21,751 nt of DNA from NCBI GenBank assembly GCA_040219255.1, contig JAVJSW010000022.1:1-21751 (forward strand), in the 5' to 3' direction. Below, one piece after another: positions 7,801 through 21,236 of the stretch. Every line of letters starts with the position of its first letter. Position 1 is the first letter of the stretch. The translations under genes and the position numbers were made by a program. The stretch is from Sumerlaeia bacterium. GTDB taxonomy: Bacteria; Sumerlaeota; Sumerlaeia; SLMS01; JAHLLQ01. The notes beneath the pieces were generated by a model. The model did no database searches. It saw only the letters and a list, made by a program, of their open reading frames with translations, and had not been told where the DNA came from.

Positions 7801-8079
7801 TTTGCCGACTTCGGCGCCGCCCTCGAAGCCACCGGAACCAACGCGCCGTACACGTGGTATCGCACCACCGGCAATCTCCCCCCAGGGCTCACACTGCTCT
7901 CCACCGGAGCGGTCTCCGGCCGCCCCACCCTCGCCGGGACTTACCGATTTGGCGTCGAGGTGCGGGACAATCGCACCCCGTTCGGCCGCGACCGGAAGAT
8001 CCTCGAACTCAAAATCAACGGCGCTCCAGACCCTCCGCCACCCCCCGCTGCCGCCGAAACCGGCTGGGTCTTGAAGTGA
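4834..8079 (+). CDS. Extracellular protein with putative Ig (He_PIG-like) domains and BNR/Asp-box (YCF48-like) beta-propellers; probably 5'-truncated
   Basis: More than a dozen [S/T]xDGGxTW-type Asp-boxes (~5510-7480). They are flanked by two N-terminal and two C-terminal 'GxLPxGLxL...GxISGTPT' Ig-like repeats. GTG start with no signal peptide. Confidence 0.85.
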   Translation: MVTFASQGIRYPNTVLAIVEKPDGTLYAGGRRMMRLANSTPPVLRMVRDDEPFWDLPPAVVGLPWVFQFKARSGVGPLRFSSDDLPLELRLDAETGILSGTFSSPGPRSFDVTVTDSQGQTDTLVVLRLAVAAEPVTLASAPIEPMTHRMTNRRSVDVTGGNPPYAWRVVDGALPEGVTVEGPGILSGTPQETGTFDFTLEASDVSAQPSIASAQYTLTVNDLEEDTWQIQSSHNRLNFLHFFDENEGVAGGLSGVIIRTIDGGKTWSFESTLDPFESDMIDASFFDDVGLVGTVTGIYRSTDRGRTWTHVHAPNHPQAPLTLPSVEFASESLAFAWNNKVIRSTDGGLTWEPTNAPERGDRYFDLAMGTEQLGWLAGHDGEFFKTTDGGVNWTLQEILDAEGEGPGDADIASVAAVGNQVWVGTSLNLGFAIALYRSEDAGATWTEEGVTPGLGFLTHLEFLDDGQNGWAVGFGRGSISRTTDGGDVWSRVSSFSNARNVTHTSFIDDQTGWVAIQANGRGIDGATVDLQGTIWKTTDGGETWAIQYGLPLRDNDILLEDADFDNHYPGGDLNAISFPTATRGYAVVQDPAARGLNIGDLITTENGGATWDWIRRVSSSTDMVFVTEDHGWIYKDEPRTRDIFETRDGGRTWSYRGDIMSDILGDLNFNFETGMDDLFFIDDQNGWISYDGSIVRTRDSGLTWEVANTEGVTRGSAGWVLHFVDRMNGWRGELDGQKVETTSDGGVNWTPATRISTTGANRIQDIYALDTQNAWATTQCGQIHRTSDGGATWETKQFGGDPAAVWTGIDFTSCLRGYAIGYRPREAFVEVGKPILAETTNASFADSPEQDFGLLNHALLGFHAVDSANAWAAGSYGGSLKYSAATGNLSIGTTGLPLGTVGIAYETALEAINADGAVTWEVCSGALPPGLTLGSTGSISGTPTEAGGFWAIIAVTDSSGASFGRRFTFAINPAESPTIVTDTLPEGQIFADFGAALEATGTNAPYTWYRTTGNLPPGLTLLSTGAVSGRPTLAGTYRFGVEVRDNRTPFGRDRKILELKINGAPDPPPPPAAAETGWVLK

Positions 8080-8136: not shown

Positions 8137-8943
8137 TCAGGGCTGATCGCTAGCCTGCAACAAGGCCTCGGATGACCGAACCACGGCGTCGGGGGGAGGT
8201 GTGTTCGGCTGGGCGAGCGCTTCGGATTGGAGCAACTTCGCCTTGGCCCCTTCTCCCCGAGCGTCCAGAATCCGGCTCAGCAGAAGCGCGTTTTCCAGCG
8301 ATGGCAGTTCCTCGTACGCCGCTCTGGCGTGGCTTTCGGCGTCGGAAAGGCTGCTCTTGGGCTTGCCGAAGCTCATGACTTTGGCGATTCCGGGCAAGGT
8401 CTCCAGGCGGTAGTTCAGGATCGCAAGGGTCTGATGAGCCACCGGGTTGGCGGGTTCGAGCGCGAGGGCCCGTTCGGCGGCGCGCTCGGTCTTGCGGGCG
8501 TGGCCGGCGCGCGCCATCATGGGCGCCAAATGCGTCGTTCCGCCCAAAGCATAGGCGTACCAGGCGGCGGCCTCGGGGTCTTCCGGAGCGGCGGCCACGG
8601 CCCGTTTCGCGTACTCGGCGGCGCTGAGGGCCGCCATGGCTCGCTGGTCTTTCTCGTGCGCGTGGTGCAGCAGGACGGCGTCGCTCTCGGCTCGGGCGGC
8701 CCGCCAGAGGACGGAGCCGTCGTCGGGATGTTCCGCCGCCAAAGCGAGCGCCAGCGACCGCGACGCCCTCAGGTCACCGGCGTTTCGGAGTTCATCCACA
8801 GCCGCGAGGTCTTCCTGAAGCGAGCCTCTGGCTGCCTCGGCGCGCGGTTGGGAAGCGACCGTTTGCCAGGTGGCGAGGTCATAGTTCGCCGCGCATCCGG
8901 TCAGCGTCAGCAGAGTGGTGATGACGATAAGCCGCCAGATCAT
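8137..8943 (-). CDS. TPR lipoprotein, RMDN (regulator of microtubule dynamics)-like
   Basis: Lipobox LTG-C. Helical repeats 'VLWRAARA', 'YAKRAVAAAPEDPEAAAWYA' and 'ERALALEPANPVAH'. AAGGA lies upstream of the ATG. Confidence 0.8.
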   Translation of the reverse strand: MIWRLIVITTLLTLTGCAANYDLATWQTVASQPRAEAARGSLQEDLAAVDELRNAGDLRASRSLALALAAEHPDDGSVLWRAARAESDAVLLHHAHEKDQRAMAALSAAEYAKRAVAAAPEDPEAAAWYAYALGGTTHLAPMMARAGHARKTERAAERALALEPANPVAHQTLAILNYRLETLPGIAKVMSFGKPKSSLSDAESHARAAYEELPSLENALLLSRILDARGEGAKAKLLQSEALAQPNTPPPDAVVRSSEALLQASDQP

Positions 8944-10471
8944 AAGTCAGATTTCCTTTGTCTGGAATTCGAAGCATTTGCTCCAGGAGTGTGGGGTAGG
9001 TGTAGCGGTACTGATCGAAATGAATCAGATGAGTCCCCCGAATGCGGGGCGTGCCGGGATGATACATTCCCGAGGGGAAGAGCAGCGCCGCCTCGGGCCG
9101 GTCGGCGCCCCGGACGAGACCGTCCTTTCCAAAGACCGAGACTGTTTCTCCACCCCAAGGCAGCAGTTCCAGATCGCGTGAGGGAAGTTGATCGTAAGCC
9201 AGCGTTTCCCGGGCGGCGGGAACGGACTCGGTGAATCGGACGGCCGCAATCAGGTGGAATCCGCTCCGCACCCAAACCACCGGATGAGGTTGCGCCGGCG
9301 AAAACCGGCCACCGGTTTCGGGAATGGCGGGATCGATGCGGCCTTTGATGTGCCGGGCCAGAACGAAATCCCCCTGCTCCGGCGTACCATGGGCTTGCTT
9401 GGCGGCTTCCTCCAAATCATCGAGGGGATAGATCCGGTGATAGCATCCGCAGGCGTAAACCGCCTCCGAAACAAGAGGCCGATGGGTGGCGTCGAGCGTG
9501 ATGCGCACGAGTTGGCCTTCGGCGCGGCCCGCTTCCGGATCGCGAGCTTTCAATTCGGGATGGTCGTGATACCAGAAGGAGTAGTTGAGTTGGGTCAGCC
9601 AGCGCCCCCCCACATAGGCGTGCGTCAGATGCCCATAGACTGTGGGTTGGGATTCATCGACTTCCGCCACCGGATCGCCCGATCGATCAGGGATCAGACC
9701 CACTCGCCCGATCGAGTCGTCGCGGCGGTCGGGAGGCGATTCGCCGGGAATTTCCTGGACAATCAGGGGCGCGTAGAGCTGGAGCAGTTCCTCCTCGGTG
9801 GCGCCCGCCAAGTGATCCAGTATGGCCTGGTCGCCCGAGGTGTCGGGTTCGTAGAGGCGTTGTGCGGCGAAGTCGCGCCAATTGGCGCCGCGCCACTCGT
9901 GCTTCGCGTGATTGGCGATCCAGAGCTTGACGAAGGGAACCGCCGGCAACGTAGCCAGCATGCGCAGGGTCTTGCCATGATTCGTGTCAGGGAGTTCGGC
10001 GGAATCGAGTAACTGCTGCGCCCACTCGCGGCGGTCCTCGGGCGAGTGGAGAGCGGCGAGACGGGACTGTTCCGCGATGCCTTGCTTGGCCAGGGCGCGG
10101 GTCATTTCGGGCGCTTGGGCGAGCCCAGCGCTTCCGACCACAAAGTCTTCGCGCCCCTTCGCCAGCATCAGATCCAGGGTTTCCTGGGCGGTCGGGGTAA
10201 ACCGGTCTGGCTGGTCGGCCAGGGCCTTCAACTGCTCCAGTCGGAAAACGATCTCGGCGTTGACCCCGAGCCACGGGCGCCCGGCGATTCCGCGATGCGT
10301 GACGTTCCAGGTTCGTGAGTTCTGTTCCATCCGTTTCGCCGCATCGAGCAATTCGCGGTCGGGTCTTGAGTCCGACCGCCGATTCGCCAAGCCGGCGGCG
10401 CATCCACTGAGAGCCATAGCTCCGGAGCACACCAGGATCAGGAACATCAATCGATAGGGGGGTCTCAGCAT
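8879..10471 (-). CDS. Lipoprotein of unknown function with an ACGCYH motif
   Basis: Lipobox LSG-C. Start placed at ATG 10471 (GAGGT RBS; ATG 10492 is too close to the sigma54 site). C-terminal domain has PTVY...LTQLNYSFWY...RITLD...ACGCYH. Confidence 0.8.
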   Translation of the reverse strand: MLRPPYRLMFLILVCSGAMALSGCAAGLANRRSDSRPDRELLDAAKRMEQNSRTWNVTHRGIAGRPWLGVNAEIVFRLEQLKALADQPDRFTPTAQETLDLMLAKGREDFVVGSAGLAQAPEMTRALAKQGIAEQSRLAALHSPEDRREWAQQLLDSAELPDTNHGKTLRMLATLPAVPFVKLWIANHAKHEWRGANWRDFAAQRLYEPDTSGDQAILDHLAGATEEELLQLYAPLIVQEIPGESPPDRRDDSIGRVGLIPDRSGDPVAEVDESQPTVYGHLTHAYVGGRWLTQLNYSFWYHDHPELKARDPEAGRAEGQLVRITLDATHRPLVSEAVYACGCYHRIYPLDDLEEAAKQAHGTPEQGDFVLARHIKGRIDPAIPETGGRFSPAQPHPVVWVRSGFHLIAAVRFTESVPAARETLAYDQLPSRDLELLPWGGETVSVFGKDGLVRGADRPEAALLFPSGMYHPGTPRIRGTHLIHFDQYRYTYPTLLEQMLRIPDKGNLTYDLAAYRHHHSADADRMRGEL

Positions 10472-10510
10472 CAAAGGCACCTCGCGAGCCATCGGACTAA
10501 CCTGGTTTTC

Positions 10511-10526
10511 GGCAAGGTCTCTGCCA
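10511..10526 (-). promoter_or_regulatory. sigma54 (-24/-12) promoter for the leftward lipoprotein operon
   Basis: Minus strand TGGCAGAGACCTTGCC = GG-N10-GC, close to the consensus TGGCAC-N5-TTGC; 40 bp upstream of ATG 10471. Confidence 0.8.
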
Positions 10527-10566
10527 CGCGGAAATCCCGGCAGAAGGCGGTGAAGGGCACTTGGTT

Positions 10567-10606
10567 CCGGTAAGAGCTATAGGACTCGATCTGTAAGAAC
10601 TTCCCG
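10567..10606. promoter_or_regulatory. Candidate tandem enhancer (UAS) for the NtrC-family activator
   Basis: CCGGTAAGAGCTATAGG (10567-10583) and TCTGTAAGAACTTCCCG (10590-10606), 23-bp period, midway between two sigma54 sites. Confidence 0.55.
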
Positions 10607-10656
10607 ATTTGACGCCGCTTCCCCCGGCAAGGGCCGTTTCGGGGCGGACACCCGCT

Positions 10657-10672
10657 TGGACTCGCCCTTGCA
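10657..10672 (+). promoter_or_regulatory. sigma54 (-24/-12) promoter for the TPR-HEAT-kinase-regulator operon
   Basis: TGGACTCGCCCTTGCA = GG-N10-GC with TTGCA, followed by AAGGAGG RBS (10693-10699) and ATG 10708. Confidence 0.7.
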
Positions 10673-10707
10673 CTGAGGGGCGAGGCTCTTGAAAGGAGGC
10701 CTCCTCT

Positions 10708-11490
10708 ATGTTTTCGCGAATCTCCTGGATTGCGCTCCTGTGCGTCGCCCTCACCGCTTTGGCGGGCGCCGCCGAGCCGGAGTCCGCTCCCGCCGCGCCT
10801 TCCCTCGCTGAACGTCTCGAAACGGCCGTGCGATCCAGCGACGATGCCCGGATCGAGAAGGTTCATCAGGACGTTCTGGCGGCGGCGGAACGGGAAGCCA
10901 ATCAGTACGAATGGCGTATCCTGGCCGCAAAGGGCTATCTGGCGCGGGCGGATTTGCTCCGCGTTCAACGGCAAATGGGAAAGGTCAGCGAAGAGGAAAA
11001 CTCGGCGATGCGCGAACAACAGGCGATCTGGGGCAAGGCCGGCGCCGAACACGCCGAGGCCGCCAAACGCTTGGCCACCACGGACCAGGAAAAATCGGAA
11101 GCTTATCGTCTCTCTGGCGAATGCACGGTCCATCGAATCAACGGACCTTTCGCCGGGATGCGCTATGGCCCCACCGCCAAGTCGGACATCGAGTACGCCC
11201 TGGAAAAGAATCCAGAGAATTGGGAGGCGCACCGCGCCCAGGGGCTCATGTTCCTCAACAATCCACCCATCAACGGCGGAGACCTGGACAAGGCTCTCGA
11301 AACATTCTCCGAATGCGCGGAGAATGATGGGGACCGCGACGCGTATCACGCCTTGCTGGCGCAAACCTGGATGAAGAAGGATCGCCCTGAACGGGCCCGT
11401 CTGGAAGTCCAAAAGGCTCTGGCCGGCAACCCGGATAATCTGTTGGCGCGACTGACCAAAGAGCGTCTGGAGGAACGGAAAGCATGGTAA
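10708..11490 (+). CDS. Exported TPR protein
   Basis: Strong RBS; Sec signal (…TALAGA-AEP). TPR-like helices 'IEYALEKNPENWEAH', 'PPINGGDLDKALETF' and 'VQKALAGNPDN'. Confidence 0.85.
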   Translation: MFSRISWIALLCVALTALAGAAEPESAPAAPSLAERLETAVRSSDDARIEKVHQDVLAAAEREANQYEWRILAAKGYLARADLLRVQRQMGKVSEEENSAMREQQAIWGKAGAEHAEAAKRLATTDQEKSEAYRLSGECTVHRINGPFAGMRYGPTAKSDIEYALEKNPENWEAHRAQGLMFLNNPPINGGDLDKALETFSECAENDGDRDAYHALLAQTWMKKDRPERARLEVQKALAGNPDNLLARLTKERLEERKAW

Positions 11491-11939
11491 CCGGTTCCCT
11501 TCGCGCCTTGGCGCTCCTCGCCTGCTTCTTGATGATGATGGTTGCCGCCGGGTGCTCATCGACCCGGGCGTTGCGGAGCGGCGACTATGGCAGTGTGGCG
11601 CCCGATGACCTGGTGAAAGCCGGCAAGTCGCACGACAGCGAACTGGCACCGCCGCTGCGGCAACTGCTGGAAACGCGCCTGAACCAGGGCGAGGACGCCG
11701 TTTCCGAAGACCAGGCCATCGAGGCCGTGATCGCCTTGGGCAAGGTGGGCGGAAGACGCGACTCGGCGATCCTGCTAAAGGTCCTGGAGACCGAGCCCTC
11801 GGCCGACGTGCGCTTCTTCGCCGTCGATGCGCTGCATGCCCTCGACGCCGTGGCCTTTCAAGAGGCTGCTCCGCGATTGCGCGAGAGCGAAGGCAGCGAT
11901 CTTGTCCGTGGACGCTACGATCAACCCCTGGCGCCATGA
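11484..11939 (+). CDS. HEAT-repeat lipoprotein
   Basis: Lipobox AAG-C. HEAT-like repeats 'EAVIALGKVG...LLKVLETEPSADVRFFAVDAL'. Overlaps the upstream stop by 7 nt. Confidence 0.8.
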   Translation: MVTGSLRALALLACFLMMMVAAGCSSTRALRSGDYGSVAPDDLVKAGKSHDSELAPPLRQLLETRLNQGEDAVSEDQAIEAVIALGKVGGRRDSAILLKVLETEPSADVRFFAVDALHALDAVAFQEAAPRLRESEGSDLVRGRYDQPLAP

Positions 11940-12027: not shown

Positions 12028-13878
12028 ATGTCCCTCAAGGCCCGTTTTTTTCTACTCACGCTCATTTTCCTGAGCTTGACCGCCGCGTTCTGCGTCGTTC
12101 TCAGCCGCCGAAACGGGGACCTGCGCTCCGCCCGCCACCATATCGAAGACGACTGGATTGAAATCCGTCATCTGCTGGAGTTGGAGCAGGCTCTCAATTA
12201 CGTTCACGGCGAGATCGAAACCAATGGCGTCCGGACGGACCGGGCGCTGGCGAGCGGCTACCTCCAGCAGGCCGTGGAGCACTCGGAGAAAATTCGCGAT
12301 CATGCCCAATCGGACCTCGTGGGCGAGAGCGGTGAGCGTGATGAACTGACCGCCCTAGCCGCTTTGGAAACCAATCTGGAGCGGTGGCAACAGTTCCTCG
12401 ACACCGCCACCTTCGACTCCTCGGACATTCGCGAGATGAATGAACTCCACAAGCAAAGTATGCTGGCTTCCAATCTCTACAGCCGAGGAGCGTTGCGGGA
12501 ACTCGAAGGGTCCATCGGTCGGCTGGATCGAACGGAAGACTTGATCAGCGCGCTCCTGCGCAATTGGTCCGTGGGCATGATCATGCTCCTGGTCTTCACT
12601 TGGGCGGGCTTCGGAATCTGGCTGATTCGTCCCATCCGGAATCTGCGTACTATGGTCGCCCAGGTGCGCGCGCGACAGTACGACGCGATCACTTCGAAGA
12701 AGGCAACCGGCGAAATCGGCGAAGTCATCCTCTCGGTACAGGAAATGGCCCAGGAAATTCAATCCTTCACCACTGGCTTGGAACAGCGCGTTCATGAACG
12801 AACTCGGGAACTCGAAGCTTCCCGCCACCAACTCCGCACCATGCTCGATCATCTCCCCGACGCCGTGGGGCTGGTGGGCCCCGGCAACCGGGTCTTGATG
12901 GCTAACGAGACCTACCACCTGCTCTTTGGCGAGAACGGCTCTTCGCCCGCCGCCTCGCTCCGCCAAGCCCCCCGCACGCCCCATGGTTATTTCCTATGGG
13001 AAGATGAACATGCGGTGTCCTACGTGCTCGACGCGCAAAGCTTCGAGCTGCCCGGCGGCGAGGACGGCGACACCATCGTGCTGGAGCACATCCGTGACAT
13101 GACCCGCCAAACGGGGGTTGAGCGAGCTCTGGCCTCTTCGCAGAAGCTGGCCGCCATCGGCCGCATCGCTTCCGGCATGGCCCACGAAATCAACAATCCC
13201 CTCACGGCCATCGGAGCCTGCGCGGAGGGTTTGATGAGGCGCATCGACCGCCCGGAACTCGATCACGAGACCTTTCGCGATTACCTGCGAACGATCCGCG
13301 ACGAAGTCTTCCGCTGTAAGGAAATCACCGAGGGACTGCTCGATCTGTCGCGCCAACGGGGACAGGCTCTGATAAATTGTTCTCCATCCGCCATCATCAC
13401 CGAAATCGTGCGGTTGGTCGCCCAGCTCGCGGACAAGAAGGGCATCGATCTTGTCTGGAACGAAGCCGGCGAATTGGAAATCATAACGAGTCCCTCCGCT
13501 CTGCGGCAGATCGTCCTCAATCTGACGCTCAATGCCATTGAAGCCTGCGAGGAGGATGGCCGGATCGAATTCCATTTGGAGCCCGAGAACGACCAGCTTG
13601 TGCTCACGATCGAGGACAACGGGCGAGGCATCCGGGGCGAGGATTTACCACAGATTTTCGAACCCTTCTTCAGCCGACGGCGCGACGAATCGGGAACGGG
13701 CCTTGGACTCTACGTTTGTCAAAGCCTGGCCGACGCCATCGGAGGGGTTCTTTCGGCGGAGAGCGCCGGTTTGGGCCAAGGGGCGTTATTCGCACTACGC
13801 CTGCCTTTGACCTCGCGCCAAGCGGCGGGTCCCATCGATCATCGATTCGAATCGAACGAAAGGATCGCTCATGTCTGA
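12028..13878 (+). CDS. Membrane sensor histidine kinase (TM - periplasmic helical sensor - TM - HAMP - PAS-like - HisKA - HATPase)
   Basis: Start placed at ATG 12028 (GGAGG RBS). H-box AHEINNPL, N-box QIVLNLTLNA, G1 DNGRGI, F-box IFEPFF, G2 GTGLGL. Confidence 0.95.
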   Translation: MSLKARFFLLTLIFLSLTAAFCVVLSRRNGDLRSARHHIEDDWIEIRHLLELEQALNYVHGEIETNGVRTDRALASGYLQQAVEHSEKIRDHAQSDLVGESGERDELTALAALETNLERWQQFLDTATFDSSDIREMNELHKQSMLASNLYSRGALRELEGSIGRLDRTEDLISALLRNWSVGMIMLLVFTWAGFGIWLIRPIRNLRTMVAQVRARQYDAITSKKATGEIGEVILSVQEMAQEIQSFTTGLEQRVHERTRELEASRHQLRTMLDHLPDAVGLVGPGNRVLMANETYHLLFGENGSSPAASLRQAPRTPHGYFLWEDEHAVSYVLDAQSFELPGGEDGDTIVLEHIRDMTRQTGVERALASSQKLAAIGRIASGMAHEINNPLTAIGACAEGLMRRIDRPELDHETFRDYLRTIRDEVFRCKEITEGLLDLSRQRGQALINCSPSAIITEIVRLVAQLADKKGIDLVWNEAGELEIITSPSALRQIVLNLTLNAIEACEEDGRIEFHLEPENDQLVLTIEDNGRGIRGEDLPQIFEPFFSRRRDESGTGLGLYVCQSLADAIGGVLSAESAGLGQGALFALRLPLTSRQAAGPIDHRFESNERIAHV

Positions 13879-15268
13879 GCGCGATGAGCCCACCGTCGTC
13901 CTGGTGGACGATGAAGCCAACATCCGCCGCATTCTGGCCCGCGAGTTGGAAAACCTGGGGCTAAAGACGCACGCCTGCGAAGACGCCGCAGCCGCTCGAA
14001 AGCTCCTCAAGGACGTCGATCCCGATGTCATCGTGCTCGATGTCCGTCTGCCAGGCGTGAAGGGCGATGCCTTCCTGGAGGAATTGCGCCAGACGGCGCC
14101 CCGCGTCCCCGTTATCATGCTGACTGGCCACGCCAACATCGATCTGGCCGTGAAGTGCATGAAGAGCGGGGCTGTCGATCTGCTGACAAAGCCCTGCTCG
14201 ATCGAGCATCTTGAGCTCTCCATCCGCCGCGCCATCGAGAATCGCCAGCTCAAGGAACAGACGCAAACGATCACTCGCCACGCCCAGCCCCGGCGGCCGT
14301 TGCCGGATCTGGTGGGGTCGTCGCCCAAGATGGCGAAGCTGCGGCGCCTGATCGAAAAAGTCGCCGGATCGGAGGAAGCCATCCTGATCGGGGGCGAGAG
14401 CGGCACCGGCAAAGAACTGATCGCCCAAGCCATTCAACGCCGCAGCCGCCGCTCCCAGGCGCCCTATATCACGGTGAACTGCGCCGCCGTCACCGAGACA
14501 CTCCTGGAGAGCGAGTTGTTCGGCCACGAAAAGGGAGCCTTTAGCGGAGCGGAAGACCGGCGTCTCGGCTTCTTCGAAATCGCCAGCGGCGGCACGCTCT
14601 TTCTGGATGAAATCGGCGACATGCCTCTCTCCATGCAGCCCAAACTGCTGCGTGTGCTGCAATCCGGCGAGTTCCGCCGCGTGGGGGGCAGCAAGACCCT
14701 CCACGCCGATGTGCGCATCATCGCCGCCACGAACAAGGACCTCTTCGAAGAAGTGCGCGAAGGGCGCTTTCGCGAGGACCTGATGCACCGCATCAACACA
14801 ATCATGCTGGAAGCACCGGCACTGCGGGACCACATTGAGGACCTGGAAGAGCTCATCGCCTTTGTGGCGCGCGATTCGGGCGAGCCGGAAGGCCGCAAGA
14901 CGTTCCAGCGGGAAACCCTCGATGTCATGCGGGTCTATCGTTGGCCTGGCAACATCCGCGAACTCCGCAATGTCGTCCGGCGAGCCTTCATCCTCTCGGA
15001 AGGCGATGAAATCGAACCGGAAGACCTGCCTCCCCACGTTCGATCAAGGGGTACCAATGGCCGGGGGTCCGCCGCCGAACCGGCCCGCGATCACGTTTTC
15101 GATTCCGAATTGACTCTGGCCGACTTGGAGAAACGCCACATCCTGGCGATGCTCGACGCCAAGGACGGAAACAAGACCCAGGCGGCCCGAGCGTTGGGCG
15201 TTTCGGTCAAAACGCTCTACAACAAGCTCGAAGCCTGGAATGCGGAACTGGAGGACAACTTGAATTGA
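13871..15268 (+). CDS. sigma54-dependent response regulator (NtrC/AtoC family: REC - AAA+ - Fis HTH)
   Basis: REC (LVDDE, VLDVRLP, KP), Walker A GESGTGKE, GAFSGA loop, Walker B LFLDEI, FREDL, WPGNIREL, HTH GNKTQAARALGVSVKTLYNKL. Confidence 0.97.
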   Translation: MSERDEPTVVLVDDEANIRRILARELENLGLKTHACEDAAAARKLLKDVDPDVIVLDVRLPGVKGDAFLEELRQTAPRVPVIMLTGHANIDLAVKCMKSGAVDLLTKPCSIEHLELSIRRAIENRQLKEQTQTITRHAQPRRPLPDLVGSSPKMAKLRRLIEKVAGSEEAILIGGESGTGKELIAQAIQRRSRRSQAPYITVNCAAVTETLLESELFGHEKGAFSGAEDRRLGFFEIASGGTLFLDEIGDMPLSMQPKLLRVLQSGEFRRVGGSKTLHADVRIIAATNKDLFEEVREGRFREDLMHRINTIMLEAPALRDHIEDLEELIAFVARDSGEPEGRKTFQRETLDVMRVYRWPGNIRELRNVVRRAFILSEGDEIEPEDLPPHVRSRGTNGRGSAAEPARDHVFDSELTLADLEKRHILAMLDAKDGNKTQAARALGVSVKTLYNKLEAWNAELEDNLN

Positions 15269-15933
15269 GCGAGCCACTGGCGCGCTTCGGCACCGAGGGC
15301 TTCGCCTTGTCCGACAAACAAGTGGTCCGTGTCCGGTATTATCCGAACCGAGGGCGACTGCCGGCCGAGCCCCGTGTGGATTCGTAGCTCTTCCTCCGTG
15401 ATCGCGAAGTCATTCTCGGCAAGCAGCACAACGCTCCCCAGGATCAGCCGCACGGGCGCCTGGAGCGCCCGCAACGGCGGGCTAACAGCAAGGGCGGGAG
15501 TCTTCAGCTCCTCCGCCTGGGACAAGGCGATCAGCGCTCCATAGGAATAGCCACCCACCGCCACAATTCCCACGTCCGTCCCCAACGGCAACTCGCGCAG
15601 GAGCCGGGCCACCCGGCGGGCATCCGCCATGTCGGGGGCGGTGCGGGGGTCGAAACGCTGGTCCGTCCAGAAGGCTTCACGAGCCGCCCCGGCCTCTCTC
15701 GAGGCGCTCTCTCCCAAGACTCGGTACTGCCAGACGAGGGCGGCGTATCCCAAGCCAGCGCAGGCATCGAGGAGCGCCAGAATGACCGGATGATCCATCG
15801 TGCCGCCAAGGAGCGGGTGGGGCGCGTGGAGCAGCATCCTCCCGGCGGCGATCGTTCCCTCGGGATAGACGAGGAGCCCCTCGATGGCACCGCTTTCCGC
15901 GGTCAAGACGACGCGTTCGTGCACGAGCTTCAT
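15217..15933 (-). CDS. Alpha/beta-fold hydrolase (COG2945-like)
   Basis: Start placed at ATG 15933 (ATGA overlap with the aminotransferase stop). HPLLGGTMDHPV, nucleophile elbow GYSYG, Asp in AEND, His in DTDHLF. Confidence 0.85.
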   Translation of the reverse strand: MKLVHERVVLTAESGAIEGLLVYPEGTIAAGRMLLHAPHPLLGGTMDHPVILALLDACAGLGYAALVWQYRVLGESASREAGAAREAFWTDQRFDPRTAPDMADARRVARLLRELPLGTDVGIVAVGGYSYGALIALSQAEELKTPALAVSPPLRALQAPVRLILGSVVLLAENDFAITEEELRIHTGLGRQSPSVRIIPDTDHLFVGQGEALGAEARQWLAQFKLSSSSAFQASSLL

Positions 15934-17192
15934 CGCGAGCCCGCCAGCGGGGAGCAATCGAGGGCCAGGGCTTCGCTGACTTGGCTGACAGCGTATTCCA
16001 TCTGGGCTTCGGTCACGATGAGGGGTGGTTCGAAGGTCAAGACATTGCGATGAGCACCCGTCTTGCCGGCCAGGATTCCGCAGTGCCTGAGTCTCATCAG
16101 CAAGGCATCGCAAAGGGTCGGATCGGGCGAGCCATCCTCCTGGCGCAGTTCCACGCCGATCATCAGCCCTTTGCCTCGGACCTCGGCGATTCTGGGGTCG
16201 TTGACCGTAGCCAGCAGGGCGCGGAAGAATCGGCCCTTTGCTTCCGCCGCCGAGGTCAGATTTGCGCGTTCGATGACCTCGATCACCTTTCGGGCCGCCG
16301 CCATGGCCACGAGGTTTCCCCCAAAGGTCGAGGCCTGGGGAGACGTCACCGCTCTCGCCACCTCCTCGGTCGCCAGCCAGGCCGCGACCGGCAACCCATT
16401 CCCAAGGGCCTTCGCCACCGACATCAGGTCCGGGGAAACATCCCAGTGCTCCATCCCGAACCATCGGCCCGTCCGGCCAAAACCGGTTTGAACTTCATCG
16501 GCAATGAGCAGGATTCCATGGCGATTCAGCAGGTCCTTCAAACGCCGGAAATACGCTGGCGGAGGGACCAAGATGCCTCCGTTGCCACAGATGGGCTCGG
16601 CGATAAAGGCCGCGAAGCGCTCGGCTCCCGTCGTTTGAATCACGTCTTCCAACGCCGCGAAGTGTTCCTCGATCGGTTGCAGCGCCGGGTGTTCGACAAA
16701 CTGGACCACCGGCGGCGGAAAGGGGTCCGCGCGCCACATCGCCACGCCCGTCGCCGCCAAGGTGAGCGAAGTGCGCCCGTGCAATCCCGGGCGAAACGCG
16801 AGAAAACCGGGACGCCCCGTCGCGATCCGCGCCGCCACCAGGGCGCCTTCATTGGCACCGCTACCGTCGGCACAGAAAAACACGCGGGAAATCGGCTCCG
16901 GCGCGAGACGAACCAGGTCCTCAGCCAGCGCGATCGGCAACTCCGACAGGTAGATCGAAGTCGTGTGCTGCAGCGAATTCATCTGTGCGGAGGCGGCGGC
17001 GGTCACCTCCGGGTGGCAGTGCCCCAGGCTGTTCACGGCGACGCCCGCGAAGAAATCCAGGTACTGGCGGCCCTCCCGATCCCAAACCGTCATGCCTTGA
17101 CCGCGAACGAGTTCCAGCGGGTTGTCGCCGTAGAAATGATAGAGGCAGGGCATCATCACCCGGCGTTTGCGTTCCAGCAGACTGGCAGTCAT
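15930..17192 (-). CDS. Class III PLP-dependent aminotransferase (omega-transaminase; GabT/ArgD/AGXT2-like)
   Basis: YLDFFAGVAVNSLGHCHP, GSGANE, HGRT, AEPICGNGG, ADEVQTGFGRTG, PLP lysine in SVAKALGNG, STFGGN. Start is ATG 17192 or GTG 17216. Confidence 0.95.
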   Translation of the reverse strand: MTASLLERKRRVMMPCLYHFYGDNPLELVRGQGMTVWDREGRQYLDFFAGVAVNSLGHCHPEVTAAASAQMNSLQHTTSIYLSELPIALAEDLVRLAPEPISRVFFCADGSGANEGALVAARIATGRPGFLAFRPGLHGRTSLTLAATGVAMWRADPFPPPVVQFVEHPALQPIEEHFAALEDVIQTTGAERFAAFIAEPICGNGGILVPPPAYFRRLKDLLNRHGILLIADEVQTGFGRTGRWFGMEHWDVSPDLMSVAKALGNGLPVAAWLATEEVARAVTSPQASTFGGNLVAMAAARKVIEVIERANLTSAAEAKGRFFRALLATVNDPRIAEVRGKGLMIGVELRQEDGSPDPTLCDALLMRLRHCGILAGKTGAHRNVLTFEPPLIVTEAQMEYAVSQVSEALALDCSPLAGSR

Positions 17193-17218
17193 GTGCGAAC
17201 CATCCTTTGCGGACACGA

Positions 17219-18646
17219 TCAGTAAATCCCCCCGGCCACCAGGCTGCGCGTTTCGGCGGCGGGAGCGGGTGCATGAAAACGGTCGCCCCGCCGGATGGCT
17301 TCGTCCCGTTCATCGCAGTTGAGGAGCAACGCGGACTCATCGAAGCGATGAAAGACCAGGCGGCCGCGCGCACCCTCTGGAGCGCGGGCGAAGCCGCCGG
17401 GCCCCGGCTCACGCAACTCCACCACCCATCGGTCCGAGAATGACCCATAGGTCAGTGGGTCGCGGCGGTCTTCGATCAGGCAGCCGAAGAGCGAGTTGCC
17501 GAAGCCGTTGATCAACTGGCAATCCGCCGGCAGCCGTTCGCGCAGGACCTCCCACTCGGCAAGCGTGAGGCTCTGGCCACCGAGATGGACGAGGCGGAGT
17601 TGCTCGAAGCGGCTCGCGGACAGGCGGGCCAGCAGGACTTTCAGGATGCTCGGCGTGATGAACAAGGCATCCACCGGATGACGGTTGAAGTGACCGAGTG
17701 TTTGCTCGATCAGGTGCTCGAGATGGCGTGTGGAGGCGGTCGTTCCGGGCAGGAGCCTGCGATGCCACCGCGGGTCGAAATCGACCTTCAGCGCGTCGCA
17801 GCCGCTTGTGCGGCGGGCGATGGCGTCGGCCGCTTTGCCGATGATGTGCGGTCCTGTGGGGCCGGCGAAGAGCCATTGACGCAGGCCGGTGATCCCCAGC
17901 TCTCCCAATTCCTGGCAAAGCGGATCGAGGAATGCGGACTTGAAATCGGCCGCCGTCCAGCCGAGGGTCACTGGCGGCCCCGTCGTACCTCCAGTCTCGC
18001 CGAGGAGAAACGGCCCCTCGGTCTCCAGGATCGAGACCGGCACGAAATCGCGCCATGTGTGCCGCAGCATTTCCGCGCGATCCATGGGTCCAAAGGCGGC
18101 TCTCAGGTCTTCGATGGTGCGGAAATCATCGGCGCTCAGGCCCCGTTCCGCCGCCCGCCAGCGCCAGAACGGCGACCCCTCGCGCGGGTCCAGATGCAGC
18201 GCCAGGACGCGGCGTTGGTGCCCCGACAGAGGGTGCGCCCGAGGCGAGGTCTCGCGGCCCGCACCCCGGCCTGACTTGACGTGTCCATCCCAGGGAAGCC
18301 GCCGGAAAATCGAGTCCAGCAGACTGCCCAGCCGCACGGCGAGAAACTGGTCGCCGGAGAGCCGCAGCTTGCCCGTGAAGAGGGCACGCTGGGGGCTCAT
18401 CTCGTTCGCCACAATCCGCAGGAATGTCTGCGCGCTGAGCCGATAACGGCAGACTGGCTCTCTGTCCCGGGGAAAGGTCAAACCCGCTTCCGTTTGCAGA
18501 AGCACCACTTCCTCGGTGCGTTCCCCATCATGCAATTCCATCGCCACGGGAACGCCGATGGAAAGCAGCAGGCGGGCGTCGTCCGGGCCGAGTCTCGGCG
18601 GGAGCCAATGCCTCAGGTAGTAGTCGCATCGCTGCAGATCGTTCAT
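17219..18646 (-). CDS. Fusion of an N-terminal SCP2 lipid-binding domain and an EhpF/PaaK-like adenylate-forming domain
   Basis: Start placed at ATG 18646 (ATGA overlap). SCP2 signature 'FLRIVANEMSPQRALFTGKLRLSGDQFLAVRL'. EhpF-like motifs 'HLDPREGSPFW', P-loop 'ETGGTTGPP', 'GPTGPHIIG', 'VDFDPRW', 'GFGNSLFG', 'ERD' and a C-terminal GIY. Confidence 0.75.
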   Translation of the reverse strand: MNDLQRCDYYLRHWLPPRLGPDDARLLLSIGVPVAMELHDGERTEEVVLLQTEAGLTFPRDREPVCRYRLSAQTFLRIVANEMSPQRALFTGKLRLSGDQFLAVRLGSLLDSIFRRLPWDGHVKSGRGAGRETSPRAHPLSGHQRRVLALHLDPREGSPFWRWRAAERGLSADDFRTIEDLRAAFGPMDRAEMLRHTWRDFVPVSILETEGPFLLGETGGTTGPPVTLGWTAADFKSAFLDPLCQELGELGITGLRQWLFAGPTGPHIIGKAADAIARRTSGCDALKVDFDPRWHRRLLPGTTASTRHLEHLIEQTLGHFNRHPVDALFITPSILKVLLARLSASRFEQLRLVHLGGQSLTLAEWEVLRERLPADCQLINGFGNSLFGCLIEDRRDPLTYGSFSDRWVVELREPGPGGFARAPEGARGRLVFHRFDESALLLNCDERDEAIRRGDRFHAPAPAAETRSLVAGGIY

Positions 18647-19668
18647 GCGGCATTCTCCATTTTGGCCACCGATTCGGACCACAGCATTGCCAGCGAGCGG
18701 AAATCCCCGGCGGTCATGTCATCGAAACGCACCGAAGCGGCCTCGGCCGCCGCCAGCGTCCGCTGCTGGCACCAGGCGCGCTGCTCCGAAAGATACAACT
18801 TCCAGGCGGCGAAAAGCCGGGACGAAGAGCGTTCGTCCAGTTCGAGCCGGGGGCAGAAGGGAACTTCCTGTAGCGCCTCCGCCAGCTCATCAACGCGGGG
18901 CGAACGGGGACTCACCAGGTTCCACACGGCTCGGTCCATAGCGGGCGAGCGAAGTCTGCCCAGGATGAAGTCCACGATGTCGGACAGGAAGCAGAAGCCG
19001 GGGCGCACCTCGGATCGCGCCGGCAGGAAACAGCGCTGGCCGCTGGCGGAACTCCAGGCGAGGGCGCGGAAGAAGGGGCCGAGGGGGCTCTGGCGCAGCG
19101 GTCCAATGCCATCCGATGGCTTGGACAGGATGATGCCGGGCCGGAAGACTTCGACAAAGGGAAGGGGGCCCTGCATCATCACCGCTTCCGCCCGGGTCTT
19201 TGTCAGTTCATAGGGGTTGCGGCAGGTCGATTCGACGGCGGCGGACTCGGACAAAAAGCCTTTGGCATCGGGGCCCACGTAGGCCGTGGAGAGATGGAAG
19301 AAGCGCGCCTCGGGATGGCGCTCCGCCAGACGGCTCAGGTTCCGCGCGGCCAAAACATGGGCCCGGCTCAACTCCTCGAGGCTGGCTCCGGCTAACTTCG
19401 GTTGGGCCGCGCAGTGGAGGATGAGGTCGAACGGCGCCCCGGCCGGCGAGTTGGCTTCGAATCGCGCTTCCGCCAAATCCGCGATCATCAACCGCAAACC
19501 GGGTTCCTCCGTTTGCCCTCCCAGCTTGTGCGCCGACTCGGGGCGAACGAGGGCCGTGACGCGATGTCCTTCGAAGAGCAGGCGCCGAAGAAGTCGGGAC
19601 CCAAGGTAGCCCGTTGAGCCTGTGATCAGGATCGAGAGGCGCTTTGCGGAGTTGTCTGAGCCGGCCAT
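18643..19668 (-). CDS. Extended SDR, thioester-reductase / fatty-acyl-CoA-reductase-like (NAD_binding_4)
   Basis: Start placed at ATG 19668. TGSTGYLG Rossmann motif, HCAA, HLSTAYV, catalytic YELTK, RPGII. Confidence 0.88.
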   Translation of the reverse strand: MAGSDNSAKRLSILITGSTGYLGSRLLRRLLFEGHRVTALVRPESAHKLGGQTEEPGLRLMIADLAEARFEANSPAGAPFDLILHCAAQPKLAGASLEELSRAHVLAARNLSRLAERHPEARFFHLSTAYVGPDAKGFLSESAAVESTCRNPYELTKTRAEAVMMQGPLPFVEVFRPGIILSKPSDGIGPLRQSPLGPFFRALAWSSASGQRCFLPARSEVRPGFCFLSDIVDFILGRLRSPAMDRAVWNLVSPRSPRVDELAEALQEVPFCPRLELDERSSSRLFAAWKLYLSEQRAWCQQRTLAAAEAASVRFDDMTAGDFRSLAMLWSESVAKMENAA

Positions 19669-19709: not shown

Positions 19710-19725
19710 GGCAATCCTTGTGCCG
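19710..19725 (-). promoter_or_regulatory. sigma54 (-24/-12) promoter for the four-enzyme operon
   Basis: Minus strand CGGCACAAGGATTGCC = GGCAC-N5-TTGC, near consensus; 42 bp upstream of ATG 19668. Confidence 0.85.
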
Positions 19726-19844: not shown

Positions 19845-19860
19845 GGGTCCGGGGCTTGCC
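19845..19860 (+). promoter_or_regulatory. Weak sigma54 promoter match for the mqnD-like/cupin operon
   Basis: GGGTCCGGGGCTTGCC = GG-N10-GC with TTGC. The -24 element is poor, but its distance (~40 bp) from ATG 19901 matches the other three sites. Confidence 0.5.
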
Positions 19861-19900: not shown

Positions 19901-20812
19901 ATGGCCGTCGCCGAAGAAACCCGTATTCTGACTTTATCGCATTCCCCCGACCCGGACGACGCCTTCACCTGGTGGGGTTTGGTCAGCGGACGGGTGCGCG
20001 TCCCCGGTGTCCGGTTCGAGGTCACACCCCGGACCATGGAGCAGGCCAATCGCGCGTGCCTGGCGGAGCGGGTGGATGTGGCGGCGATTTCCTCGGCGGC
20101 CTGGCCGCACTTCAGTCGAAAGTATGCGATCCTCGGCAGCGGCGCCTCGGTCGGCCGGGGCTACGGACCGGCGGTCGCGAGCCGTGTTTGCTCATCCGTC
20201 GCCGAACTCGACCGCGCCACCGTAGCCCTGCCCGGCTCGATGACCACCGGGGCATTGCTCTTCCGCCTGTTCCATCCTCTGGCGGCCACCATCGAAAAAC
20301 CCTGCTCCGCCGTCGCCGAAGCCATTGTCAACGGCGACGTGGAAGGGGGTGTTCTGATCCACGAGGAATTGATGAACTACGCACACAAGGGGCTGCGCCG
20401 GCTGGAGTGCCTGGGCCGGCGGTGGCTCGATGAAACCGGCCTGCCCATTCCCGTGGGACTGATCGCCGTGCATCGCCGGCTGGGCGAGGAACTGATCGCG
20501 AGGATCGCCGCCGCTGTGGCCGAAAGCGTCGAATGCGGTTTCCGGCATCGCGACAAGGCCCTGACTTACGCCATGAACTTCAGCACCCAGGCGGTGGATG
20601 GCATCGGCGTGGACTTCGTCCGCATGTTCACCAACGAGGACACCCTCGCGCTGCCCGAGGACTGTCTCGCCGCATTGCGCCTTCTCTATGCGAAAGCCTA
20701 CGTCGCCGACCTCATTCCCGAACTGCCCCCCGTCAATCCGGTCTATCCGGGAAAGCGCGAGCCAAAACCATCGCGCGTGGGGTTGGACTGGGACTACCAA
20801 TATGCGATTTGA
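19901..20812 (+). CDS. mqnD: MqnD-like protein (1,4-dihydroxy-6-naphthoate synthase; MqnA/MqnD/SBP family)
   Basis: Start placed at ATG 19901 (AAAGGGA RBS). HSPDPDDAF, GASVGRGYGP, VALPGSMTT, GVLIHE, WLDETGLPIPVG and FVRMFTNEDT match MqnD family motifs as I recall them. Orthology is not certain. Confidence 0.75.
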   Translation: MAVAEETRILTLSHSPDPDDAFTWWGLVSGRVRVPGVRFEVTPRTMEQANRACLAERVDVAAISSAAWPHFSRKYAILGSGASVGRGYGPAVASRVCSSVAELDRATVALPGSMTTGALLFRLFHPLAATIEKPCSAVAEAIVNGDVEGGVLIHEELMNYAHKGLRRLECLGRRWLDETGLPIPVGLIAVHRRLGEELIARIAAAVAESVECGFRHRDKALTYAMNFSTQAVDGIGVDFVRMFTNEDTLALPEDCLAALRLLYAKAYVADLIPELPPVNPVYPGKREPKPSRVGLDWDYQYAI

Positions 20813-21236
20813 TCACCTCGAAGCCCCCCTCTGTCAACTGGACGAAGGCCCCTTGGCGGGCCTCCGCCACCGGACCGTGATCGACGCCACCGCCGGGGCA
20901 AAGCAACTCGCGCTCTGGCAGGAAGAACACAAGAGCGGTTTCCGAGTTCCACCGCACCGCCACAATTGCGAGGAAATCATCACCGTTCTGGACGGAGAAA
21001 TCCTGGCCGATATCGACGGTCAAAACCACACTGTCAAAGCTGGCGAAAGCATCCTGATCCCGGAGTGGGCCTCCCACGGATTCCAGGTTATGGGAGAAAG
21101 ACCGGTTCGACTTTTGGCGATCTTCGGTTCCGCCAAGCCCGGAATCTACCGCGAAGACGGCACTCCCTCCACCCCTCCCTGGGAGGGGGGGAACTCCGCC
21201 CACCTGGAAAGTCCCGCGGACTCACAAGCCAACTGA
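20802..21236 (+). CDS. Cupin-domain protein resembling auxin-binding protein 1 (ABP1)
   Basis: Start placed at ATG 20802 (overlaps the upstream stop by 11 nt). Cupin motif 1 PPHRHNCEEIITVLDG; motif 2 GESILIPEWASH. Confidence 0.85.
   Translation: MRFDHLEAPLCQLDEGPLAGLRHRTVIDATAGAKQLALWQEEHKSGFRVPPHRHNCEEIITVLDGEILADIDGQNHTVKAGESILIPEWASHGFQVMGERPVRLLAIFGSAKPGIYREDGTPSTPPWEGGNSAHLESPADSQAN

Follow-up and report, generated by a model that had tools for sequence, protein, structure and literature searches.

A candidate carrier-free acid-to-amine operon from Sumerlaeia that is conserved across bacterial phyla and linked to futalosine pathway genes

The 21,751-base contig JAVJSW010000022.1 of a Sumerlaeia bacterium (assembly GCA_040219255.1) carries four genes on its minus strand that encode a reductase, an adenylating enzyme fused to an SCP2 domain, an aminotransferase and a hydrolase. 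We refer to this whole contig (C22 in our numbering) as the window; it belongs to a genome of 5.35 Mb in 83 contigs with an estimated completeness of 92%. From protein families, predicted folds and gene neighbourhoods we propose, with a confidence that falls somewhat short of even, that the operon is a module that would convert a carboxylate via the aldehyde into a primary amine without a phosphopantetheine carrier, and that the acid would come from the futalosine pathway. A first-pass annotation of the same DNA had already read the four genes as an acid-to-amine operon. Its interpretation at the level of domains held in all tests that were run. Its view of the four genes as a self-contained unit did not hold, having overlooked a divergent MqnD paralogue, the probable sigma-54 control and a larger conserved cluster linked to futalosine genes.

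Results

Four co-directional genes with two start/stop overlaps

The first gene of the operon (19668..18643, minus strand) encodes a short-chain dehydrogenase/reductase (SDR) of 341 amino acids (aa) that is of the thioester-reductase/fatty-acyl-reductase type (NAD_binding_4) and is proposed to reduce an acyl group to the aldehyde. It is followed on the same strand by the 475-aa SCP2::adenylating enzyme (18646..17219), with the SCP2 domain at about residues 1-120 and an EhpF-type domain at about residues 140-475. Next come a class III (omega-type) aminotransferase (17192..15930, minus strand, with an alternative GTG start at 17216) and a 238-aa alpha/beta hydrolase (15933..15217, minus strand) with a Ser-Asp-His triad, a putative thioesterase or esterase, or a transient acyl acceptor. 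ATGA overlaps of start and stop codons join the first gene to the second (18646-18643) and the third to the fourth (15933-15930). The four co-directional genes and both overlaps are thus present where the first-pass annotation had placed them. The GC content of the window is about 60-65%, and hence long spurious open reading frames (ORFs) are plentiful on both strands. The codon-position GC values of the four genes (GC3 0.76-0.79, GC2 0.48-0.52) follow the pattern of real genes. The four genes probably form one operon that is driven by sigma-54.

The adenylating enzyme resembles EhpF over its whole chain

In Pfam the gene of the adenylating enzyme matched SCP2 (9e-9) and, weakly, AMP-binding (1.4e-4, 21.2 bits with a cut-off of 29.9). 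The best sequence match in the PDB, and the only clear relative among solved structures, was EhpF (3l2k/3hgu, 2e-19, residues 146-452). EhpF comes from the D-alanylgriseoluteic acid/phenazine pathway of Pantoea agglomerans (PDB 3HGU, 3HGV, 3L2K) and acts there, according to the PDB titles, on a polycyclic aromatic acid. An AlphaFold2 (AF2) model that was built with an alignment of 34 homologues (pLDDT 92) divides into an SCP2 domain, a disordered linker (126-133) and a single catalytic domain (140-475), after which the chain ends without a C-terminal ANL domain. The top Foldseek matches of the model were EhpF chains (E 2.8e-20), with a TM-score normalised to the length of the matched EhpF chain (TMt) of 0.79-0.80 over 335-346 columns of 345-352 residues. 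PaaK1 (E 8.5e-17) was matched in its N-domain only, with a TMt of 0.56, and PaaK1 and other two-domain ligases together reached 0.5-0.56. This combination of a whole-chain match to EhpF and an N-domain match to PaaK1 indicates an ANL enzyme without the C-terminal thioester-forming domain. On the model, the protein is an EhpF-like ANL enzyme that lacks the domain handling CoA or pantetheine. It shares with EhpF the whole-chain fold and the missing C-terminal ANL domain; it differs in sequence (about 24-26% identity) and in its additional N-terminal SCP2 domain.

A phosphate-loop-like, Gly/Thr-rich motif (GETGGTTGxP) and a GYGNS motif are conserved in the 34 aligned sequences, and no Cys or Lys is invariant among them. 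A word-indexed protein search returned 38 homologues, 16 of them fused to SCP2; one of the 38 is from Frigoriglobus tundricola, and certain JGI records name such homologues 'thienamycin biosynthesis protein ThnN'.

A second, orphan family of EhpF-like adenylating enzymes without the C-terminal domain occurs in 51 of 251 sampled Planctomycetota genomes. Its members (among our loci L114-L165) share 22-32% identity with the window protein, and no cluster genes lie within about 7 kb of them.

The reductase is closest to the thioester-reductase type and no carrier protein is encoded nearby

The SDR matched the Pfam models NAD_binding_4 (1.1e-18, 67.8 bits with a cut-off of 20.1) and Epimerase (6e-17). 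Its best NCBIfam matches were PRK07201 and the thioester reductase model TIGR01746, both below their cut-offs; for TIGR01746 the window protein reached 53.8 bits and its orthologues 142-158 bits, all under the cut-off of 213.35. The orthologues matched the reductase (R) domain of MxcG at 1e-31, and the R domains of alpha-aminoadipate reductase and of carboxylic acid reductase (CAR) were matched as well. Models of sugar epimerases scored far lower than those of thioester reductases, for the SDR and for its orthologues. In an alignment of 34 sequences the Rossmann glycines (G17, G20 and G23 of TGxxGxxG) and S127, Y153 and K157 are all invariant. Judged by sequence, the SDR is closest to the thioester-reductase, R-domain and fatty-acyl reductase (FAR) type and not to sugar epimerases, which argues against the action on NDP-sugars that the first-pass annotation had named as a possible refutation.

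The window encodes no PP-binding domain, as was already noted for acyl and peptidyl carrier proteins (ACP and PCP) in the first pass. The 5.35-Mb genome holds a single match, on contig C56, and this only carrier is the housekeeping ACP. None was found among 120 ORFs that were scanned with Pfam in 12 related loci. The fused A-T-R architecture of CAR is not seen here: the functions reside in individual proteins, the A domain is shortened and a T domain is missing. The CAR model was matched solely by the R part of SDR orthologues.

A cluster-specific aminotransferase and an intact hydrolase

Aminotran_3 (PF00202) matched residues 34-417 of the 428-aa aminotransferase ORF with 2e-100 and 336.7 bits, and the alignment covers profile positions 11-403 of 403, that is the full length. 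The best models are those of acetylornithine transaminases, with 336.5 bits for argD (cut-off 410.05) and 256.8 bits for GabT (cut-off 506.65); PigE was matched below its cut-off. We calculated a quick maximum-likelihood tree of 40 rows, made up of the window copy, 34 cluster-linked copies chosen for diversity from 54 extracted ORFs, and five paralogues from the same genome. In this tree 34 of the 35 cluster-linked copies (the window copy and 33 of the 34 others) form one clade with an SH-aLRT of 99, which leaves out all five genome paralogues. The outlier, from L062, is a different, upstream aminotransferase. By its scores and its place in the tree the aminotransferase is a member of a cluster-specific clade and not an ArgD or GabT. 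The plain ArgD/GabT that had been considered as a way to refute the acid-to-amine interpretation was thus not found. Two of the same-genome paralogues are of the GabT type (541 and 506 bits). No gene of the window's genome exceeds the argD cut-off, the window gene being the best-scoring one, and 13 of 14 control genomes have a gene that passes. Among five other cluster-bearing genomes, three have a separate ArgD (451-480 bits) beside the cluster copy (305-335 bits), including the closest Sumerlaeota relative. Since the genome is 92% complete, its housekeeping ArgD may be unassembled; it may also have been replaced.

The 238-aa hydrolase has no Pfam match of its own, and its orthologues match the Abhydrolase_1/6 and Hydrolase_4 models. 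S130 (in GYSxG), D175, H204 and the pair H39-P40 are invariant among 45 aligned orthologues. The sequences hence identify the fourth protein as an alpha/beta hydrolase whose Ser-Asp-His triad is intact. Taken together, profiles from Pfam and NCBIfam, folds and orthologue alignments bear out the domain calls made in the first pass.

The arrangement is conserved in about eight phyla

We scanned one genome per GTDB species and obtained 287 relatives of the adenylating enzyme that were confirmed by tblastn, and retained the best 80 loci. The existence of the orphan family means that the 207 others may include members of it. The module is found in at least 80 species of about eight phyla. The hosts are Planctomycetota (including the anammox genus Scalindua), Candidatus Sumerlaeota, Acidobacteriota, Lentisphaerota (Victivallales), Auribacterota, Hydrogenedentota, Desulfobacterota and Sedimenticolaceae. 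The closest relative among these best 80 of 287 loci is from Candidatus Sumerlaeota, with 50% identity and the same SCP2 fusion.

Neighbours were counted by tblastn in the 80 loci; contig ends truncate several of these loci. The SDR is the most frequent (66 of 80), followed by SCP2 and the hydrolase (58 each) and the aminotransferase (57). The four-gene arrangement is conserved far beyond chance. Further neighbours are an MMPL/HpnN-like transporter (41 loci), a fused double U32 protein (38), a lipoprotein (28), an MqnD-type PF02621 gene (25), a sigma-54 response regulator (16) and MqnE/MqnC radical-SAM genes (15). The identities of the neighbours were confirmed in 12 diverse loci with Pfam and NCBIfam. 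In these 12 loci SCP2 is fused to the SDR in five and stands alone in three. Depending on the lineage, SCP2 is thus joined to the adenylating enzyme or to the SDR, which suggests that both enzymes share one hydrophobic substrate. No close homologue of the MMPL transporter lies near the window operon, and no fatty-acid synthesis genes were seen in the 12 clusters scanned.

The U32 protein and the MqnD-type gene alternate. Across the 80 loci both occur together in only two, U32 alone in 36, the MqnD-type gene alone in 23 and neither in 19. Similarly, U32 and the lipoprotein coincide in two loci, 36 have U32 only, 26 the lipoprotein only and 16 neither. In the two loci with U32 and an MqnD-type gene, both from Victivallales, the cluster lies inside a full mqn operon, and the MqnD-type gene there may be the housekeeping copy. 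The alternation suggests two routes to one intermediate. The window represents the MqnD-paralogue form; its genome has no cluster-type U32, and the sole U32 gene, on another contig, is of the DUF3656 'collagenase' type. The cluster U32 protein resembles UbiU, UbiV and TrhP, with scores under the cut-offs. Together with a UbiT-like SCP2, the UbiU/V-like fused double U32 protein of 38 loci recalls the UbiT/UbiU/UbiV system of oxygen-independent ubiquinone hydroxylation, with the differences that all scores lie under the UbiU, UbiV and UbiT cut-offs and that the host pathway is that of menaquinone and not of ubiquinone. These parts suggest a prenylated aromatic lipid as the substrate.

An MqnD paralogue and other futalosine genes accompany the cluster

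Divergent from the operon lies mqnD2 (19901..20812, plus strand; the longest ORF opens with TTG at 19856), which encodes a second MqnD-type paralogue of the PF02621 family. MqnD is the 1,4-dihydroxy-6-naphthoate synthase of the futalosine pathway. MqnD2 matches PF02621 with 6e-55, and its best PDB matches are AF1704 (1ZBM, 7e-41) and MqnD TTHA1568 (2CZL/3A3U, 2.5e-35), with no MqnA chains among the PDB matches listed. It is therefore closest to MqnD-type structures, and it is an extra paralogue, a better MqnD being encoded elsewhere in the genome. Four PF02621 genes are present in total. The copy at 174 kb of contig C77 is the best MqnD (AF1704 1e-64, MqnD TTHA1568 1e-51), a second copy on C77 is MqnA, the chorismate dehydratase (4e-32), and the copy on C16 is a distant MqnA relative. 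The same MqnD2 neighbourhood is found in the Sumerlaeota loci L001 and L002, and the members of the MqnD form stand in the window in the same gene order as in these two loci.

In a quick tree of 35 PF02621 proteins the cluster-linked copies of U32-less loci all fall on the MqnD side (SH-aLRT 100), grouped apart from the housekeeping MqnD of the same genomes. The best MqnD from C77 groups with the housekeeping copies of other genomes. PF02621 genes within the Victivallales and Auribacterota clusters are on the MqnA side of the tree. Genomes with the U32 form have two PF02621 genes in four of five cases, with none in one Scalindua genome; among genomes with the MqnD-paralogue form three genes are present in four of five, and four in the Sumerlaeota relative. 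An MqnD paralogue or MqnE/C genes lie inside or beside the cluster in 38 of the 80 loci, which is far above chance. In one Sedimenticolaceae genome two PF02621 genes are located about 13-16 kb from the cluster, apparently on the same contig, and MqnC exceeds its cut-off in three of five anammox genomes tested.

We also sampled 251 Planctomycetota genomes by profile search. An adenylating-enzyme match was obtained in 71 genomes, a raw number that is inflated: when the 52 lower-scoring matches were fetched, 51 turned out to be orphan paralogues (for L163, tblastn with the window protein found nothing) and one a true cluster. The 20 true cluster genomes consist of this one and of 19 high-scoring genomes that were taken by score and not by inspected context. 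PF02621 is present in 19 of the 20 and in 143 of the 231 others. The futalosine pathway is common in the phylum, and hence this enrichment is modest evidence only; as a profile-based count it is consistent with a dependence of the cluster on the futalosine pathway.

The canonical futalosine set of the window's genome is complete, with MqnA, MqnD, one UbiD, three UbiA-family genes and radical-SAM matches. Two of the latter are of the CofH/MqnC family, one with the strength of an MqnC/MqnE type (126 bits) and one weak (61.5 bits). With the canonical pathway complete, the cluster is an addition and not a replacement, and it would make something extra. Comparative genomics from 2016 (PMC4746308), in its outline of the late futalosine steps, predicted prenylation, decarboxylation and methylation only (MqnP, MqnL, MqnM, MenG).

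We considered whether the cluster replaces the UbiD-type decarboxylase (MqnL) and rejected this idea, as UbiD is present in 17 of the 19 high-scoring Planctomycetota cluster genomes and in the window's genome; in a smaller sample of five cluster genomes it is missing from three.

In a Sedimentisphaerales metagenome-assembled genome (MAG), a 748-aa fusion of MqnE and MqnC (aminofutalosine synthase and cyclic dehypoxanthinyl futalosine synthase; L067:2135-4381, plus strand) scores above both NCBIfam equivalog cut-offs and lies directly 5' of the SDR-SCP2 gene.

A sigma-54 promoter-like element precedes the operon

About 40 nt 5' of the SDR start codon lies a sigma-54 promoter-like element, GGCAC-N5-TTGC (19711..19724, minus strand). 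It is the sole exact match in the window when both strands are counted, with 0.27 expected; one or more matches arose in 22 of 100 shuffles. For a slightly relaxed motif, 27 occurrences were counted on the cluster strand across the 80 loci (1.14 Mb). Of the 27, fifteen fall within 1.5 kb 5' of the SDR ORF, each in a different locus among the 58 with that ORF, where about two are expected from the proportion of sequence searched; these 15 loci include one from Sumerlaeota and ten from Scalindua. Convergent with the operon is the gene of a sigma-54-dependent response regulator with REC-AAA+-Fis architecture (13871..15268, plus strand; Sigma54_activat 1e-68, Response_reg 4.5e-28), preceded by that of its partner, a HAMP/PAS histidine kinase (12028..13878, plus strand; HATPase_c 2e-25, HisKA, HAMP; the ORF opens at 11827 and the likely Met is at 12028). 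Homologues of the regulator and of the kinase were each found near the cluster in 16 of 80 loci. The sigma-54 site and the adjoining activator, both recognised by sequence, suggest that the operon is under sigma-54 control. A scan of the operon region for sigma-70 promoters and terminators gave nothing above shuffles.

Discussion

We favour the reading in which the operon turns a carboxylic acid into a primary amine without a phosphopantetheine carrier. The SCP2 domain would hold a hydrophobic carboxylic acid, and the fused EhpF-type enzyme, which has no C-terminal domain for thioester formation, would adenylate it. The R-domain/FAR-type SDR would then reduce the activated acyl group with NAD(P)H to the aldehyde, from which the dedicated class III aminotransferase would form the amine. 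The Ser-Asp-His hydrolase might free the acid from an ester or thioester precursor, like LuxD, or carry the acyl group transiently. The arrangement of the genes, their folds and catalytic motifs, their conservation and their genomic association with mqn genes are observed; in this scheme we infer the adenylation, the direct reduction, the carrier-free hand-off, the order of the steps and the substrate. As the cluster is tied to the futalosine route and to a divergent MqnD paralogue, the likeliest acid would be 1,4-dihydroxy-6-naphthoate or a prenylated form of it, and the product a 6-(aminomethyl)naphthoquinol-type lipid. The relative from a phenazine pathway, the UbiT- and UbiU/V-like parts and the integration with mqn genes all argue for an aromatic, probably prenylated acid. 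An MMPL transporter might then export the product, or the lipoprotein and the TPR proteins might handle it in the envelope.

Adenylation, R-type reduction with NAD(P)H and class III transamination are combined in several known systems, namely CAR (A-T-R) with an omega-transaminase, TamA/TamH of tambjamine and MxcG/MxcL of myxochelin biosynthesis, and the predicted logic of the window operon is the same. Those systems, however, require a phosphopantetheinyl carrier domain, whereas the window operon has no PP-binding domain and its adenylating enzyme in addition lacks a thioester-making domain. In LuxCDE an acyl-hydrolase/transferase, a small adenylating 'acyl-protein synthetase' and a reductase convert an acid to the aldehyde without a separate carrier protein. 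The window operon would contain the same trio of functions, a likeness drawn at the level of function. There are differences, since LuxC is of the aldehyde-dehydrogenase type and LuxE acylates its own Cys, while the window family has no invariant Cys. For EhpF and its partner EhpG, the structure paper on EhpF from 2010 reportedly proposed a reduction in which an aromatic carboxylate passes through its adenylate to the aldehyde and neither CoA nor a carrier takes part. The window operon departs from this pair in its partner reductase, which is an R-domain/FAR-type SDR and not a member of the aldehyde dehydrogenase family, in the aminotransferase and hydrolase that follow, and in its menaquinone instead of phenazine context.

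Several observations weigh against the favoured reading. Thioesters are the known substrates of R-type reductases, and to our knowledge none of these enzymes has been shown to accept an acyl-adenylate. The AMP-binding match of the adenylating enzyme is below the Pfam cut-off, and the window aminotransferase is the top argD-like gene of a genome in which none passes the cut-off. The aminotransferase is absent from the neighbourhood in about eight Phycisphaerae loci, and no prenyltransferase was seen in any of the 12 clusters scanned. The evidence for the futalosine link is all genomic. The genome already contains a complete canonical futalosine pathway, and PF02621 has a background of 62% in Planctomycetota (p of about 0.003 for the 19 high-scoring genomes). 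One cluster-bearing Scalindua genome has neither a PF02621 match nor an MqnC above the cut-off, possibly because it is incomplete. In a table of PMC11278526 the annotation of ehpF is AMP-binding protein and that of ehpG is aldehyde dehydrogenase family protein, so that in this source EhpF's own partner is not an SDR.

A plain fatty-amine pathway, with LuxCDE-like logic and an added transaminase, is a serious rival, even if we judge it improbable. Here a fatty acid would be converted via the fatty aldehyde into a long-chain primary amine for the envelope, and the mqn neighbours would be only loosely related. The hydrolase would free the acid from acyl-ACP (LuxD-like), the adenylating enzyme would act like LuxE, the FAR-type SDR and the aminotransferase would complete the conversion, and elsewhere an MMPL transporter would export the product. 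SCP2 domains and MMPL/HpnN-like transporters are indeed generic lipid handlers, PRK07201 and NAD_binding_4 (the 'male sterility' FAR family) include fatty acyl reductases, and the sole carrier of the genome is the housekeeping ACP. The conserved lipoprotein and the secreted TPR proteins also suggest an envelope destination, and for tambjamine, PMC9594044 in its treatment of TamH describes a transaminase::thioester-reductase that takes fatty acids to amines. The closest structural relative of the adenylating enzyme, however, acts on a polycyclic aromatic acid, and the UbiU/V-like U32 protein and the UbiT-like SCP2 point to an aromatic prenyl-lipid. MqnD paralogues or MqnE/C genes also lie in or beside the cluster in 38 of 80 loci, far above chance, and the 12 scanned clusters showed no genes for the synthesis of fatty acids. 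The cluster context thus tilts the product towards a lipid-bound arylmethylamine over a plain fatty amine.

Amide-forming and amino-acid semialdehyde routes are less likely. Formation of an amide, which we hold to be distinctly unlikely, would require that the aminotransferase acts on an aldehyde or ketone from another source and yields the amine to which the truncated adenylating enzyme couples an acid, with tailoring by the SDR and the hydrolase. An ANL enzyme without its C-terminal domain could in principle release the adenylate to any nucleophile, and the absence of the aminotransferase from certain loci may mean that it is separable from the pair of adenylating enzyme and SDR. This route sits poorly with an SDR that is the most constant neighbour (66 of 80 loci) and of the acyl-reducing R-domain type, and with the fusion of SCP2 to either the adenylating enzyme or the SDR, which suggests one common lipid substrate. 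Least probable, and in our view hardly to be expected, is a role in amino-acid metabolism, in which the adenylating enzyme and the SDR would replace ArgB/ArgC or ProB/ProA (ThnN/ThnO-like), the aminotransferase would serve as ArgD or ornithine aminotransferase and the hydrolase as deacylase. It would account for the acetylornithine transaminase models being the best ones for the aminotransferase, for the lead of this gene among the argD-like genes of a genome where none passes, and for the ThnN names in JGI records; in the literature, searches for ThnN/ThnO turned up only unrelated tetralin and naphthalene 'thn' genes. Yet the aminotransferase scores under every ArgD cut-off (336.5 against 410), the cluster aminotransferases are a clade of their own, and three of five other cluster-bearing genomes, that of the Sumerlaeota relative included, encode a separate ArgD above the cut-off. 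The window genome's own ArgD may be unassembled at 92% completeness, and SCP2, MMPL, U32 and mqn neighbours would make no sense for a soluble amino acid.

The acid-to-amine reading can be taken further, in a form that we consider doubtful. The cluster would make a new nitrogen-containing naphthoquinone lipid, a 6-(aminomethyl) and possibly hydroxylated relative of menaquinone, and the R-type SDR would reduce the acyl-adenylate that the ANL enzyme, without a C-terminal domain, hands over directly, which would be a new solution in enzymatic terms. In Planctomycetota (anammox bacteria among them), Sumerlaeota, Lentisphaerota, Auribacterota and some Desulfobacterota and Gammaproteobacteria, such a compound might function as a specialised cofactor of redox reactions or as a lipid of the envelope. 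One and the same intermediate would be reached in two ways, through the U32 hydroxylase in anaerobes and through the MqnD paralogue in other lineages. Literature searches, with supplements outside their scope, found no description of the cluster. There is a substantial chance that the product itself is new. If the acid-to-amine reading is true, a split, carrier-free pair of adenylating enzyme and R-type reductase can turn carboxylic acids into aldehydes, and it would offer a compact alternative to the large CAR enzymes in acid-to-amine biocatalysis cascades. It would also mean that a side branch of the futalosine/menaquinone pathway exists in ecologically important and mostly uncultured bacteria, among them marine anammox bacteria. 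The alternation of the oxygen-independent U32 hydroxylase with the MqnD paralogue provides a testable handle on poorly understood families.

Neighbouring genes and further observations

Next to mqnD2 lies the gene of a Cupin_2 protein (20802..21236, plus strand; Cupin_2 4e-16; the start is approximate and the ORF opens at 20598). With 71-72% identity in L001 and L002 it is the most conserved neighbourhood gene of the three Sumerlaeota loci, and it has no match in the other 78 of the 80 loci. Whether it belongs to the system is uncertain; it might act in oxygen-dependent tailoring or be a neighbour with no relation to the cluster.

A conserved lipoprotein is encoded at 8879..10492 (minus strand), with a lipobox Cys, an invariant Cys-Gly-Cys and a C-terminal NLP-like beta-sandwich domain. 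It has no Pfam match. Its homologues occur in 28 of 80 loci and together with U32 in only two, which makes it a member of the U32-less loci. C31, C348-G-C350 and H413 are invariant in the alignment. In the AF2 model (pLDDT 80.6) residues 230-504 reach a VIA-align Z of 10.1 to NLP proteins, which is a resemblance of fold only, and Foldseek gave no convincing match (best E 4e-3). In L047 and L050 the homologues are extended at the C-terminus by a thioredoxin-like CxxC segment, a hint of thiol/redox chemistry in the periplasm.

Two genes of TPR-like proteins flank the lipoprotein gene. One, 3' of it (8137..8943, minus strand; RMD1-3/TPR-like 1.3e-7), is conserved in the Sumerlaeota loci L001 and L002 only, with 49-50% identity. 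The other (10708..11490, plus strand) encodes a secreted TPR-like protein with a signal-peptide-like N-terminus and gene-like codon-position GC values (GC1/2/3 0.67/0.46/0.70). It weakly resembles the TPR protein that is encoded between U32 and the aminotransferase in Scalindua clusters (nine of 80 loci, 63-70 bits). The minus-strand ORF 10471..11937, tried as a gene, was rejected; like several other long ORFs it looks spurious, an artefact of the high GC content.

Towards the other end of the contig are two repeat proteins, both probable surface or secreted proteins, that are unrelated to the cluster in other loci. One has 956 aa (142-3012, minus strand; LVIVD repeats, DUF4082) and the other 1081 aa (4834-8079, plus strand; He_PIG Ig-like, BNR/Asp-box and sortilin-type repeats). 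A TetR regulator is encoded between them (4011-4694).

In other loci, cytochrome b/b6-like or multihaem cytochrome c genes follow 3' of the aminotransferase (L030, L004 and L067, from Scalindua, Acidobacteriota and Sedimentisphaerales), and these neighbours fit a quinone-related role. B12-binding radical-SAM genes flank the cluster in a Victivallales genome and a deltaproteobacterial MAG (L032:5188-6600; L033:2057-3445 and 12648-14099). One of these genes scores 354.7 bits, slightly below the cut-off of 360, with the model 'lipid biosynthesis B12-binding/radical SAM protein'.

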